Positions 42,994-52,467 of a stretch of DNA of 64,000 bases are shown here, piece by piece; within the stretch, counting starts at the first letter, position 1; each line of letters begins with the position of its first letter. The stretch is from Bdellovibrionales bacterium (GTDB lineage Bacteria > Bdellovibrionota > Bdellovibrionia > Bdellovibrionales > JAUICD01): assembly GCA_965262715.1 (NCBI GenBank), contig OZ253553.1:2240001-2304000 (forward strand), in the 5' to 3' direction. The position numbers were made by a program, and so were the translations under genes. Below the pieces are notes generated by a model that did not search any database, had not been told where the DNA came from, and saw only the letters and a program-made list of their open reading frames with translations.

Positions 42994-45411
42994 GTGAACG
43001 AACGAAAATACGATGCAAAATCTATTAAAGTTTTAGAAGGTATAGAAGCTGTCAGAAAACGTCCTGGTATGTATATTGGTGATACTGTTGAAAGAGGTTA
43101 TCACCATCTTGTGTATGAAATTGTGGATAATTCTGTCGACGAGGCTTTAGGAGGACATTGTAAAAATATCAAAATTACGATTCATCCTGATGAATCTATT
43201 TCTGTTGAAGATGATGGTAGAGGAATTCCTGTGGAAAGACATAGGAGTGGAAAATCAGCTTTAGAAGTTGTTATGACTACTTTACATGCAGGTGGAAAAT
43301 TTGATAAAGATTCTTATAAAGTATCTGGTGGACTTCATGGTGTTGGAGCTTCAGTTGTAAACGCTTTGTCTAGTAAGTGTAGTGTAGAAGTAAAGAAAAA
43401 TGGTAAAATTTGGAAACAATCTTATGAGAAGGGTGCTTCTACATCTAAATTAGAAGAACTTGGAACAACTAAAAAAACAGGAACAAAAGTAACATTTAAA
43501 CCTGATAGGGAAATTTTTAAAGAGGAAAGTATCACTTATAAATTTTCAACGCTTTCAAGTAGATTTCGTGAGTTGGCTTTTTTAAATGCAGGACTTAATA
43601 TCACTTTATTTGATGAAAGGGTTGGAAAAGATAAAAAGCAAACTTTTTATTATACAGAAGGTATTATAGAGTTTGTTTCTTTTTTAAATCATTCTAAGAA
43701 AGCGATAAATCAGAACATTGTTTATTTTAAAGGGAACAAAGAGGGTGTTGATATAGAGATAGCTATGCAGTGGAATGATTCTTATTCGGAATCTATTTAT
43801 AGCTACGCAAATAATATCAATACAATAGAGGGTGGAACTCATCTTATTGGTTTTCGATCTGCACTTACAAGAACAGCTAATAACTATGCATCTAGTAGCG
43901 GTCTTTTAAAAAGCTTAAAAGAAAATTTAGACGGAGATGATATTCGAGAAGGACTTGCAGCTGTTATCAGTGTAAAAGTCAACGAACCTCAATTTGAAGG
44001 TCAGACAAAAACGAAGCTAGGTAACAATGAGATAAAAGGTATTGTTGAATCATTAGTAAATGATAAACTGGCAGATTGGTTTGAAAGAAATCCTAATCCT
44101 GCTAAAAAAATTGTCACAAAATGCATTGATGCTGCTAGAGCAAGGTTTGCAGCGAGAAAAGCTAAAGAGTTAACAAGAAGAAAAACAGCTTTAGATTCTG
44201 GTAGTTTGCCGGGAAAAATGGCAGATTGTCAGGAGAGGGATCCTGCTCTTTGTGAGATTTACTTAGTTGAGGGAGATTCTGCAGGCGGCTCAGCTAAGCA
44301 GGCAAGAGATAGAGCGACTCAAGCAGTTCTTCCATTAAAGGGTAAAATTTTAAATGTAGAAAAAGCGCGTTTTGAAAAAATGCTAACAAATGATGAGATA
44401 AGAATGATGATAACAGTTTTTGGTATTGGTATTGGAAGAGAAAATATTAATATTGAAAAGATTAGGTATCATAAGATTATTATAATGACAGATGCTGATG
44501 TAGATGGTTCTCATATTCGCACATTACTTTTAACATTTTTTTATAGGCAAATGCCTGAATTGATAAAGAACGGCTATGTTTATATTGCACAACCACCGTT
44601 ATACCGGTTAAAGAAGGGTAAAAAAGAAGTTTATATTAAAGATGATAAAGATTTAACACATCATCTTTTAAACACAGGGCTTGATAATATAAAAATAAAA
44701 AGCTTAGAGAAACCTTTAGATAAGAAAACTCTTATACAGTTAATTATTAATATTCAGAAATTTAATTTGTTACTAAAGATAATAGGTCAGAGGGTAGACC
44801 AGGCTATTTTAGAATATATTGTAAAAAACGAAGTTTCATTAAAGGAAGTTTTAAAGAACAAAACTAAAATAGAATCTTTTATTAAGGATATTAAAAAATT
44901 AGTTGTAGATAGTCCTGTGAGGAGGGTGTTAAGAATAGATCATGAGATCAAGGAGGATACAGAACATAAAACTTTTATTCTTTCTATTTCTGTAAAATAT
45001 TTTACAGAGACTGTAGAGAGCATTCTAGATATAAACTTTGCAGAGTCTACTGAATTTGAGGAGTTGCAAAGCTTATGGGACTCTTTTAATAACAATCTAC
45101 CTTTGCCTTTGAAGGTAGATATAGAGGGTCAACTTAAGGAATTTAATGATCATACGGAGTTTGCTTCATGGATTATAGATTATAATAAGAGTGGTTATTA
45201 TATTCAGAGGTATAAAGGTCTTGGAGAGATGAACCCCGATCAACTTTGGGAAACTACATTGAATCCTAAAAACCGTCAGCTCTTGCAAGTAGAGATTGGA
45301 GATGCTATAGAGGCGGATGAAACGTTTAGTGTACTTATGGGAGAAAGCGTAGAACCCAGAAGAAACTTCATAGAGGAAAATGCAAAATATGTTTCAGGAT
45401 TAGATGTCTAG
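42994..45411 (+). CDS. gyrB: DNA gyrase subunit B
   Basis: [36 protein letters not shown]. Confidence 0.98.
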
Positions 45412-45442
45412 AAAATCTGGCGATATAGTTGAAGATTACAGT

Positions 45443-45680
45443 AATAAAAATTGATTATTACAGACTTAACTTCGTTGCACAAATATGTCTAAGAGAATCA
45501 AGTCAGGCTTTATGAAATAGGTTCTAGGCAACCCCCGTGCCCTGTACTATTTTGGCTTTATGATTTCACTATAGAATAAGATGTTTTATATAAACGTTAT
45601 CTCCTGAGGCACTGGCCTAAACCTTTATTTCATAAAGCCTGACTTAATTCTTATATATGTCTATGTAATAAATTTTTATT
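45443..45680. repeat. R2 copy 2 inside long nested inverted repeats
   Basis: Perfect 20-bp arms 45500-45519 / 45626-45645; looser outer arms about 45443-45465 / 45659-45680. Confidence 0.75.
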
Positions 45681-49474: not shown

Positions 49475-50004
49475 TGTTTCATTGCTAATAAAAGAGCAAT
49501 TGACTTCAAATAGTTTGTATTTGATAAACCAGTCTATTTGTTATTACTTAAATCTATTACACCTGATTTGCTGAAGTGGTTATTTTTGTATAGGAGAAGG
49601 GATTTGATTAAAATAATCAAGTGGAAATCCAAGCATACAAATAAAATATATGCTATTAATATGGATTTAATAAAGAATTTTCATATAAGTTGAATGAAAA
49701 CACAATCATGGAATCTATTTATGAGTTTCTTAATAACTTAATTTTTGATTTTTTAAATGATTCTAAACAGTATGTTTTAGACTTAACTGTTACGTTAAAA
49801 AATCGGGAAATAATTAGAAAAATAGAATTCCAAGCAACCTGATACAACTAACTTCCAATTTGTAGGGTCCCAGAAGATAAAGTCTCAATTATTCCTAAAA
49901 ATCTTATAATCCACTTTACCCTGTTCATCGTTTGATATAAAGTAAATTGTTTGATAAGTTGCATTATATACAAGTGATAAATCATATTATGTGGAGTTGA
50001 TGAT

Positions 50005-52467
50005 ATGAAACCAAAGCGGGTGGATATTGAAGCAGAAATGAAGGATGCTTATCTGCAATACTCGATGAGTGTGATTGTAGGTAGAGCGTTGCCGGACGTG
50101 AGAGATGGGTTGAAGCCGGTTCATAGGCGTGTTCTTTTTGCACAGCATGAGATGAACAATGTGCACAACAAGCCTTATAAAAAGTCAGCGCGTGTTGTGG
50201 GTGATGTGATTGGTAAATATCATCCTCATGGAGATGTTGCTGTCTACGATACCATTGTAAGAATGGCTCAGTCTTTTTCTCTAAGATACCCATTGATAGA
50301 TGGACAAGGTAACTTTGGCTCTATTGATGGAGATAGTCCTGCTGCTATGAGGTACACAGAAGTACGCATGACTCAAATTGCAGAGGAATTATTAGAGGAT
50401 ATTGAGAAAGACACTGTTAGTTTTTATCCTAACTATGATGACTCATTAGAGATACCTTCTGTATTACCTTCAAAAGTCCCTAACTTATTGATTAACGGGT
50501 CTTCTGGTATTGCTGTTGGTATGGCCACCAATATTCCTCCACACAATTTATCTGAGATAATAAAAGGTTGTATTCATGTTATTGATACCCCGGACTGCAC
50601 TATTGATTCTCTAATAAAAATAATCCCTGGGCCAGACTTTCCATCTTTTGGAGAAATTTCAGGTAGAAAAGGAATGATATCTGCTTATAAGACAGGAAGG
50701 GGAGTTATTACGCTGAGGTCTGTTGCAGAGATAGAGGAGAAAAAAGGCAGAGAAGTTATTATTGTTACAGAAATTCCTTATCAAGTGAATAAAGCGCGTC
50801 TTATAGAGTCTATTGCAGAGTTAGTAAAAGATAAAAAAGTTGAAGGGATTTCTGATATTCGAGATGAATCTTCAAAGGCTGGTATGAGGATTGTTTTGGA
50901 TATCAAAAAAGGAGAAAATAGCGGTGTTATTTTAAATCGTTTGTATAAATACACTCAGATGCAGGTTCGATTTTCTATGATTATGTTGGCTTTAGATAAG
51001 GGCAGTCAGCCAAGACTTTTTAATCTTAAAGCTTTCTTAGAAGCCTTTATTGAACATAGAAAAGAGGTGATTACAAAGCGTTGTATTTTTGATCTTAAAA
51101 AAGCAGAAGCTAGAATTCATATTTTACAAGGGTTAAAGAAGGCTTTAGACAACATTGATACTGTTGTGAAAGTTATCAGAGAAAGCAGAGAGCCTGCTGT
51201 TGCTAAGTTAGCACTTATAAAGAAGTTTCAATTTAGTGCAGTACAAACACAAGCTATATTAGATATGAGACTAGCTCGGCTGACGGGGCTTGAAGGGGAG
51301 AAAATATTAAAAGAGATTCAGGAATTGGAAAACAAAATAAAATGGTTAAAGGATATCTTAGGGGATATTAAAAGGGTATATGAAATTATAAAAGAAGAGT
51401 TAATAGCTATTAAGAGTAAATATGGAGATAAGAGAAAGACAGTTATTGTTGCAGAACAAGAAGACCTTGAAGATGAAGACTTAATAGCTAAAGAAGAGGT
51501 GATTGTGACAATCACCTACACAGGTTATATCAAGAGGATTCTAAGCTCAACATATAAAACTCAACATAGAGGTGGTCGAGGTATTAAAGGGGCCATGGCT
51601 CGAGAGGAAGACTTTGTTTACAATATTTTTGCTGTTAATACTTTCACAACTCTTTTAATTTTTACAAATAAAGGAAAAATTTATTGGCTAAAAGTTTATA
51701 AGTTGCCTCAGGGATTAAGAACATCTAAAGGAAAATCTATAGCTAATATGGTAAACTTATCTTCACAAGAAAAAGTCATGGCTATATTACCTGTAGATGA
51801 GTTCAAAGAACATGATAATGTGGTATTGATCACCGAAAAAGGGATTATTAAAAAGACGCCTCTTTCTGCTTTTTCGCACCCAAGACCTTCAGGAATTATT
51901 GCTTTAAAGATTGATTTAAATGATAATCTAGTAGGAGCAAAGCTCAGCTCAGGGGCTGATGACATTTTTATAGCGACATCAAAGGGTCAGTCTATACGCT
52001 TTGATGAGAGTCAAGTCAGGGCTATGGGGCGTACAGCAAGAGGTGTTAAGGGCATGAATCTCTCTAAGAATGATAAAGTTGTAGGAATAGAAATTCTTAA
52101 CAAGTCTCATAAGGTCTCTAAAACAGAGCAGCAAATTATTATTATGGTGACTGAAAAAGGTTATGGAAAGAAAACCCTTGCTAAGGAATATAGGACTCAG
52201 AACAGAGGTGGTGTTGGAATTATCACTCAAAAAACCACAGACAAAGTGGGTCGTGTTGTAGGTACGGCAAGTGTAAAGCTTAAAGATGATGTGATGGTGA
52301 TCACGAATAAAGGTCAATTGATTAGGATGAAAACCAGTAAGATTTCTACTTATGGAAGGAACACTCAAGGAGTTCGGTTGATCAATTTAAAATCAGAGGA
52401 GACCGTTTCTAATTTTACTCTTATTGTTGAGGAAGACGAAGAAGAGGCATTAAATGATCTAGCCTAG
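50005..52467 (+). CDS. gyrA: DNA gyrase subunit A
   Basis: [23 protein letters not shown], GyrA-box QHRGGRG. Confidence 0.98.

Follow-up and report, generated by a model that had tools for sequence, protein, structure and literature searches.

Spare ends of both gyrase genes between two accessory-gene blocks in the gyrB–gyrA gap of a Bdellovibrionales genome

Layout of the gyrB–gyrA gap

The window analysed here is a 64,000-nucleotide genomic stretch (contig OZ253553.1) from a Bdellovibrionales-type bacterium that has not been cultured, and all positions refer to it. The gap between its two gyrase genes consists of two accessory-gene blocks with a spare gyrA start and a spare gyrB end between them, which bears out the order read in an earlier note from the sequence alone (gyrB, cargo 1, spacer, a gyrA-start/gyrB-end fusion, ankyrin cargo, second spacer, gyrA). 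Its features are as follows.

42994–45411, + strand: gyrB, working copy, 805 aa
45285–45411, + strand: T1, tail of the working gyrB, counterpart of the spare tail
45470–45791, + strand: decayed left end of a multicopy IS (327-aa transposase), with a 41-bp-arm hairpin
45862–45922, + strand: IS1634 right-end remnant, ~60 nt, lacking the terminal repeat and at no junction
45982–46707, + strand: cargo 1 ORF1, TIGR04255 family (E 8e-22, above cut-off)
46704–47270, + strand: cargo 1 ORF2, without family match
47279–47695, + strand: cargo 1 ORF3, predicted ADP-ribosyltransferase-like (NAD-binding) fold
47823–48097, + strand: S1-left, decayed small ORF, 94–96% identity to S2-left; putative crossover or conversion tract
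48098–48392, + strand: S1-right, end of the decayed ORF plus gyrA upstream region; putatively of donor origin
48393–48416, + strand: H1, spare gyrA head, MKPKQVDI, Q5 type; putatively of donor origin
48404–48416, + strand: join, imperfect in-frame microhomology of gyrA codons 5–8 with gyrB QVEI
48417–48530, + strand: T2, spare tail of gyrB, with 10 silent changes and 3 replacements relative to T1
48576–48625, no strand: dispersed short repeat (111 matches here, 149 in genome G001)
48899–49474, + strand: cargo 2, ankyrin-repeat protein, 191 aa
49572–50004, + strand: S2, second copy of the spacer, with an 88-nt deletion between 49678 and 49679
50005–52467, + strand: gyrA, working copy, 820 aa, R5 head as in the nearest relatives

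Both gyr genes are whole and their ends are duplicated, with no deletion of host DNA at the locus; long direct repeats flank the cargo, and the homologous locus is partly duplicated on both sides of the insert. The spacer comprises a decayed small ORF and the gyrA upstream region, interrupted by a frameshift in copy 1 and by the 88-nt deletion in copy 2, and its right-hand parts (S1-right and S2-right) share 71–80% identity with indels. The IS remnant and the 60-nt IS1634 end both sit between gyrB and cargo 1. Promoter and terminator scans stayed at chance level. For cargo 1 ORF3, searches of Pfam, PDB sequences and Foldseek gave no match and Atlas matches carried no names; conserved residues R17, S46 and H104 hint at an active site. 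This protein is a candidate toxin or defence effector. A literature search covering few subscription papers returned nothing relevant on TIGR04255, on insertions between gyrB and gyrA, or on integrase-independent islands.

Elsewhere in this taxonomic order the gap measures 8–81 nt (28 of 28 loci), which we took as the ancestral state. Double gyrB tails were present at none of 28 GTDB loci (1.5-kb flanks) and none of 80 metagenome loci, and the single same-genus genome found has gyrB and gyrA far apart. The sequence 3' of the gyrB stop varies by strain: X7 contigs show two other continuations and X8 has the T1 type; one X7 contig carries the short repeat of 48576–48625 at 38 nt behind a gyrB end. 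Gap DNA of close relatives was not found in metagenome contigs (best full-length identity 38–41%), and cluster look-ups with ten neighbouring proteins returned no relatives. Neither a circle nor a complete single-cassette allele was seen in these data, from which gap-spanning DNA of close relatives is absent, and no excision joint appeared among the contig matches listed, contigs being assemblies that drop rare variants.

The join and the spare gene ends

The earlier note had raised the possibility that the junction at 48410–48425 is chimeric. It is spanned with no differences by an X1 contig (48068–48494) and by a contig from a separate study, X5 (48372–53000). A chimeric assembly of two strains is thus extremely improbable: X1 depth does rise from 4.2–4.8 left of the spacer to 6.8–8.25 right of it, and the only X5 contig among those listed reaches rightwards from 48372, but the join is recovered in both studies, X1 contigs tile 42500–53000 with no differences and only short breaks at repeats, and T2 carries decay changes found in no working tail.

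A 45-codon frame starts with the ATG at 48393 and comprises gyrA codons 1–8, one Trp codon, 36 gyrB codons and TAA. The in-frame microhomology proposed at this join, between gyrB QVEI and gyrA codons 5–8, is present though imperfect (10/13 nt between the head copy and gyrB). It is the best among 2256 head-by-tail windows, and in a 400 × 400-nt comparison 101 of 149382 14-nt windows score equally well; QVDI, found in GyrB of 5/18 relatives, lengthens it. No other hybrid-type protein occurred among 11 matches of 24–79 aa. A functional hybrid peptide or GyrA decoy was rejected, both for want of such a relative in that size range and on account of replacements in the tail that occur in 0/18 working tails (W, V and L; see below); the hybrid ORF of 45 aa is probably a functionless by-product.

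The spare tail differs from its working counterpart almost only at silent positions. Recounting 45301–45411 against 48420–48530 gave the figures first reported, 11 of 111 nt in 10 codons, with 8 silent changes (TAG/TAA included) and two altered codons (A/V and S/L); a third replacement, Gly in gyrB to Trp in T2, had gone unlisted. Over the full tail, T1 and T2 differ by 10 silent changes at 23 silent sites and 3 replacements at 91 sites. Under a null model in which an identical duplicate simply decays, simulated with five mutation models, a mean of 18–22 replacements accompanied 9–11 silent changes, and three or fewer were rarely reached (P ≤ 0.0013). T2 therefore very probably evolved for the greater part of its existence within a functional gyrB. 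It is now decaying, since the GyrB tails of relatives carry G, A and S (18/18) where T2 has W, V and L.

For the spare head, the two silent changes already noted relative to working gyrA hold, and one replacement accompanies them. H1 carries Q5, as distant lineages do (the 3 other heads and G001), whereas R5 is shared by the working head and the nearest lineages (2 relatives whose RecF is 93% identical). RecF was assigned to these heads through contigs of the same length. The Q5/R5 difference is a single base. The silent bias and the Q5/R5 contrast argue strongly that T2 and H1 derive from working genes of a lineage at about sister-species distance. An origin in working gyr genes of another lineage, as first proposed, is thereby upheld, but the "related strain" holds only in part, this distance being that of a sister species rather than a close strain.

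The two spacer copies follow a different pattern. They are near-identical over ~190 aligned nt, and identity falls from 94–96% to 71–80% at ~48098. Silent differences affect fewer sites in this tract (1/26) than in the tail (10/23; Fisher p = 0.0013, the tract having been picked after looking, and p = 0.011 when it is extended by five codons), and an identical start followed by neutral decay fits only the S-left tract, not the tail (P ≤ 0.0013). The tract thus likely marks a crossover, in agreement with the single crossover in the shared spacer that the earlier note had suggested, although tandem copies that underwent gene conversion afterwards would show the same pattern. Decay clocks agree between T2 (3/91) and the spacer tract (9/187, split between two dead copies), suggesting that the spare pieces have since decayed by about 2–3% per site.

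Spare gene ends elsewhere in the genome

Diverged spare ends occur at 15 of 940 core genes, with a pooled pN/pS of 0.17. Tail matches within 30 kb lie downstream on the same strand in 22 cases, upstream in one and on the opposite strand in none. Most of the other diverged loci have a single duplicated end with unrelated cargo, and most consist of a displaced tail of the upstream gene; a Dnd/Pbe island provides a second case with two-ended geometry. Permuted ends were also sought at other loci, but the procedure did not recover the known gyrB case, so that the number of two-ended loci is not countable from it. The integrase-free route considered below has probably shaped further genes of the genome as well.

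Long target duplications of IS1634 form a separate, identical-copy class. A host-only origin would start from such an event: an IS1634 insertion would have duplicated tail, gap and head, after which alleles were replaced and the IS was lost at the microhomology. IS1634-like loci do have flanking direct repeats of 38–1667 nt (32/41), and an end remnant lies at 45862–45922. However, this remnant is at no junction and the direct repeats do not abut IS1634 ends, end copies at the 7 core genes flanking an IS1634 are 100% identical, and an IS1634 is present at only 2 of the 15 diverged loci. The observed divergence would demand one replacement for the tails, another for the heads and a third for S-right, and the silent-bias simulation disfavours this origin (P ≤ 0.0013), leaving it very unlikely.

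We consider it even less probable that gene ends are targeted in trans by a recombinase or by the enzyme of a hairpin element, which would move cassettes with their flanking ends. A high-copy repeat adjoins spare tails at two census loci (387700 and 1518343), but no dispersed repeat adjoins the edges of the spacer or the join of H1 with T2, and the flanks of 18 spare-end junctions have no common core by eye. Viral contigs hold no close gyrB tail (best match 65% among 27 loci), on which basis a phage att site in the gyrB tail was also rejected.

A proposed route and its relation to known systems

S-right, H1, T2, cargo 2 and S-left follow one another as a circular permutation of the normal gyrB–gap–gyrA locus. 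The reading we favour, at roughly an even chance, is that the join is the scar of a 1.6–1.75 kb DNA circle from a related lineage, inserted by one crossover in the shared spacer. A fragment of the donor locus would have been taken up, natural transformation being the probable means, and then closed on itself at the QV[DE]I microhomology. The resulting circle may then have crossed over in the small spacer ORF without an integrase, and heteroduplex repair could have left the two spacer copies near-identical over their ~190 aligned nt. Both gyrase genes were kept whole, and the pattern of changes in the spare pieces is one of decay afterwards. The suggestion of an integrase-free insertion, already made in the earlier note, agrees with a Pfam scan in which none of the five forward gap ORFs matched a recombinase; two short antisense ORFs are also present in the gap. 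The comEC and dprA families match in this genome, but also in 10/14 control genomes; the Ku family has no match in this assembly (92.7% complete).

An unlikely but by no means negligible alternative dispenses with the circle: the gap would have been duplicated in tandem in the donor chromosome, by unequal crossover at the microhomology or as a long IS1634 target duplication later without its IS, and a linear piece running from the spacer through H1–T2 and cargo 2 to the second spacer would have replaced the host spacer by double crossover. This yields the same sequence order and explains the near-identical S-left copies without conversion, as well as the matching decay clocks. This genome has short local tandem duplications as well as IS1634 duplications of as much as 1667 nt, compared to a T2-to-H2 distance of 1625 nt, and tandem duplications by transformation are known (PMC3784515). 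Nevertheless, both crossovers would have to fall within 0.5 kb of spacer, the majority of the other diverged spare ends are one-ended with unrelated cargo, and no second copy of cargo 2 was found in the genome.

It is distinctly unlikely that cargo 1 is instead the incomer, a donor T1–cargo 1–S1–H1 piece anchored in gyrB with the host tail displaced as T2, in linear form or as a 3.1-kb circle, and joined to the host gyrB tail by microhomology as at icd/icdC. H1 would be of donor type here too, and a displaced upstream-gene tail is the geometry of most other loci. T1 and T2 share an identical 47-nt block (48465–48511), which could alternatively point to the tail as the place of a crossover or of a subsequent conversion. 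The gyrB of X7, 5% from that of the window, has a tail with 2 certain silent sites in common with T2 and 1 with T1, which leans weakly toward T2 as the old host tail; this tail differs from both copies at ~13% of sites, however, and is therefore a poor guide. From what is generally known of RecA, the 126-nt, 88% tail would also attract a crossover less readily than the spacer tract, and this origin alone does not explain why S-left is so much more alike between copies than S-right and the tails.

The class of mechanism implied by the circle is already known, the route having been published for E. coli (PMC3240628). In that account, re-ligated donor DNA and a single crossover produced duplications of 109–950 bp at lacZ, with foreign DNA between partial locus copies (Amarir-Bouhram et al. 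2011, PMC3240628). The gyr locus is similar in its sizes, which fall within that range, in a join that would precede integration and in the lack of an integrase, and its duplicated pieces are donor and host alleles. Unlike the lacZ case, it is natural and involves no plasmid construct, its copies are orthologs ~10% apart with 15 such loci in the one genome, and each flanking gene supplies an end, making the donor order readable as permuted. HFIR (PMC3240628) likewise combines one homologous step with one short-microhomology join, and competence-gene families have matches here, as in most control genomes; in HFIR the illegitimate join uses 3–10 bp of microhomology (10/13 nt, imperfect, at the gyr join) and similar-sized host DNA is usually deleted, whereas here nothing was lost and both gene ends were duplicated. 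A mosaic GyrA in the window, with a crossover at codons 163–190, would have implied linear HFIR anchored in gyrA; it was dropped, as RecF and the distances make one relative the recombinant.

Prophage e14 carries its own integrase. Its icd/icdC scar in E. coli also leaves a displaced, diverged C-terminal fragment beyond the insert, but the gyr gap has no recombinase and its tail is fused to a gyrA head (PMC13626634). Unconventional circularisable structures (PMC7843796; H47 island, PMC5426353) share cargo between long direct repeats without a recombinase gene, and the gyr cargo could similarly loop out as a circle; here, however, the repeats are diverged essential-gene ends and a decayed spacer. 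Streptococcus pneumoniae merodiploids arise as tandem duplications via alternative pairing of incoming DNA with essential genes intact, spanning 100–900 kb between IS repeats (PMC3784515), compared to <2 kb, a 13-nt imperfect microhomology and cargo that differs between copies at the gyr locus. Target duplications of IS1634/IS1549, given as 8–514 bp (PMC2266710), also place spare gene ends around an insert and are abundant in the present genome, but their copies are identical and abut IS ends, while the gyr copies have diverged at silent sites and their joins lack an IS end. The silent bias of a spare end thus offers a simple test to separate such scars from long IS1634 target duplications.

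Overall, this locus is an unusually readable natural scar, in which the two donor ends and their join stand together with a decay clock and the probable crossover tract. It illustrates how accessory genes can pass between sister species and gather beside essential genes without a mobile-element enzyme. On a more speculative and rather unlikely reading, circles holding both flanking gene ends would act as self-targeting cassettes in this lineage, a gap between two core genes being excised at a microhomology, moved between sister species and returned to the same gap by host recombination. If so, defence and ankyrin cargo would pile up between essential genes, as in an integron without an integrase, and this would happen routinely, with the gyrB–gyrA gap and the Dnd/Pbe island as two legible examples.

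The gyrB–gyrA stack and its junction

The gyrB–gyrA stack is a real, well-resolved scar of an integrase-free insertion–duplication between sister lineages, for which we infer a circle and a direction of transfer. The genome that contains the window (G000) is a single 2.94-Mb contig, 92.7% complete, and the named relatives of its GyrB are Bdellovibrionales. Gene order is dnaA, dnaN, recF (these three named by eye) and gyrB, which a 4.6-kb gap separates from gyrA; in the order's other genera this gap spans 8–81 nt (28/28 loci), and in the one same-genus genome (G001) the two genes sit far from each other, on opposite strands. 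Two cargos, a three-gene operon (ORF1–ORF3) and an ankyrin gene, are each followed by a copy of one spacer, and between them lie:

48393..48416, spare gyrA head (H1)
48417..48530, spare gyrB tail (T2)

A reading frame opening at 48393 comprises eight codons of gyrA, one for Trp and 36 of gyrB. At the join, 10 of 13 nt match gyrB, a score equalled by ~0.07% of comparable windows. This junction is present in contigs from X1 (48068-48494) and, in a different study, X5 (48372-53000), which cross it with 0 differences; X1–X4 represent one sample, from which the assembly itself may derive, and X1 and X5 are perhaps not fully independent, as an unrelated contig has the same length in both. Within 42500-53000, X1 contig depth is 4.2–4.8 left of the spacer and 6.8–8.25 right of it, and X5 has a contig only from 48372 rightwards.

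Other strains vary at this site. Sample X7 carries two other continuations behind a gyrB stop (a joint, 45407 to 48576, and a loose end), one of which reaches, 38 nt on, the short repeat that follows T2, and X8 has sequence of the type of the working tail (T1). Homologs of both cargos (86–88%) occur somewhere in X7, and no complete single-cassette gap was seen among the contigs examined. Other features in and beyond the gap are:

window 45470-45922, directly behind gyrB: remnants of two elements, the decayed left end of an IS, which forms a strong hairpin (z −6.2), and a piece of an IS1634 right end
G000:C1:2868378-2870185 and 2498837-2499109: tandem arrays (235-nt and 56-nt periods) including pieces of dispersed repeats present in the gap
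G000:C1:2221618-2223324, 344499-344903 and 1163973-1164440: three more genes of the ORF3 family, of which the one listed first closes a similar three-gene operon
L031:2692-6800: gyrB of G001 (gyrA at L032:2406-4859), behind which a small coiled-coil ORF is repeated in tandem (3–4 copies)

Source of the spare ends and proposed crossover site

The earlier note's gyrB tail counts (11/111 nt, eight silent changes and two altered codons) were all reproduced, as were two silent changes in the gyrA head, which also carries one replacement. Over 38 codons, T1 and T2 differ at 10/23 silent and 3/91 replacement sites. In simulations of an identical copy left to decay, 9–11 silent changes accompany ~18–22 replacements, with three or fewer in at most 0.13% of simulations. 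The T2 replacements W, V and L occur in 0/18 relatives' tails (one truncated protein excluded), which points to recent decay atop older, orthologous divergence. Arg5 of the working gyrA head is common to two relatives with 93% identical RecF, and Gln5 of H1 recurs in the three other heads and in G001 (relatives' GyrA heads and RecF being paired by inference, from contigs of the same length), so H1 is probably foreign. Both the silent bias of T2 and Gln5 fit the proposal that these pieces evolved as working genes in another lineage. A mosaic origin of the window's own GyrA was dropped after RecF and distance comparisons. Separately, a relative with 71% identical RecF (P0013, P0143, P0162, on a 113785-nt contig) has a GyrA 3' part differing from the window's at only 3/511 residues, likely explained by gyrA transfer between distant lineages.

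The spacer combines a decayed small ORF with the region upstream of gyrA. Its two copies share 94–96% identity on the left (9 differences over 187 nt) and 71–80%, with indels, on the right. Silent differences number 1/26 in the left tract vs 10/23 in the gyrB tails (p = 0.0013, or 0.011 with five more codons), p values that bear on a tract picked after looking at the data. If the copies were equal at the event and both have decayed since, each has changed by 2.4%, close to the 3.3% of T2. The near-identical left tract and matching decay thus fit a crossover with conversion in the shared spacer, where the earlier note had placed a single crossover. Counter-evidence comes from a 47-nt identical block common to T1 and T2, and from the X7 tail, which matches T2 at two silent sites scored as certain and T1 at one (the listing omits differences near contig ends). 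The order of right spacer, H1, T2, cargo 2 and left spacer is a permutation of a normal locus. Such an order requires a circle, or else a tandem duplication made beforehand in the donor and then moved by double crossover, for which pneumococcal merodiploids provide a template (PMC3784515); the two would give indistinguishable sequence.

Spare gene ends across the genome

Among 940 single-copy genes common to G000 and G001 (genes with >8 hits excluded), a search for nearby copies of gene tails gave 22 hits downstream on the same strand vs 1 upstream and 0 on the opposite strand, and for copies of heads 8 hits upstream vs 1. These spare ends fall into two classes. Identical copies flank IS1634 elements in seven genes and make up short tandem repeats in one, and 32/41 IS1634-like loci have direct repeats of 38–1667 nt. 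Diverged copies, at 15 genes, show 105/405 silent and 66/1455 replacement differences when pooled (pN/pS 0.17); IS1634 is present at only 2/15 of these loci, and 0/15 G001 orthologs have end copies. In G001, speA has its neighbour directly behind it; in G000, what comes next is an ankyrin gene and a spare tail. Near tail hits in G001 number six; identity is 98–100% in four of them, and a clear silent bias is absent from all six. A high-copy repeat sits at the spare tail of two loci, which may have a different cause. Individual loci include:

G000:C1:451980-470942 (L290): second two-ended stack, with ccsB-like tail, left-neighbour piece and 15-kb Dnd/Pbe island
G000:C1:1220535-1225235 (L036): core gene with three stacked spare tails downstream (71–86% identity), separated by HTH, MqsA-like/DUF4258 and ankyrin cargo
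G000:C1:2843535-2850671: gene named by eye as ribosomal protein L14-like, with a 248-nt spare copy 6.5 kb downstream (16 silent, 10 replacement changes), cargo and IS1634 between
window 58880-60541: IS1634 copy with a 237-nt repeat

At the first of these, near 453 kb, the spare tail, with 11 silent and 3 replacement changes, adjoins a 74-nt fragment from the left neighbour that has 6 and 1, counted by hand. The phosphorothioate island and the real gene come next, an arrangement that, as read from the sequence, has the same two-ended geometry as gyrB–gyrA. The ~40 IS1634-like loci of G000 include target duplications of up to 1667 nt, beyond the 8–514 bp given in PMC2266710, whose IS1634 duplications correspond to the identical class of spare ends.

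Relation to known routes

The closest tested route to the stack is one described in E. coli, in which the donor DNA is linear and homologous at one end; after trimming and re-ligation it integrates through a single crossover, yielding 109–950 bp duplications ten times more frequently than true homology-facilitated illegitimate recombination occurs (PMC3240628). The latter process, unlike the stack, deletes host DNA. The icd/icdC scar belongs to a prophage (PMC13626634), and circularisable structures share the anatomy of the stack (PMC7843796, PMC5426353). Within the literature searched, no paper on an insertion between gyrB and gyrA came up. This kind of mechanism is already known, and the gyrB–gyrA stack adds another member to it.
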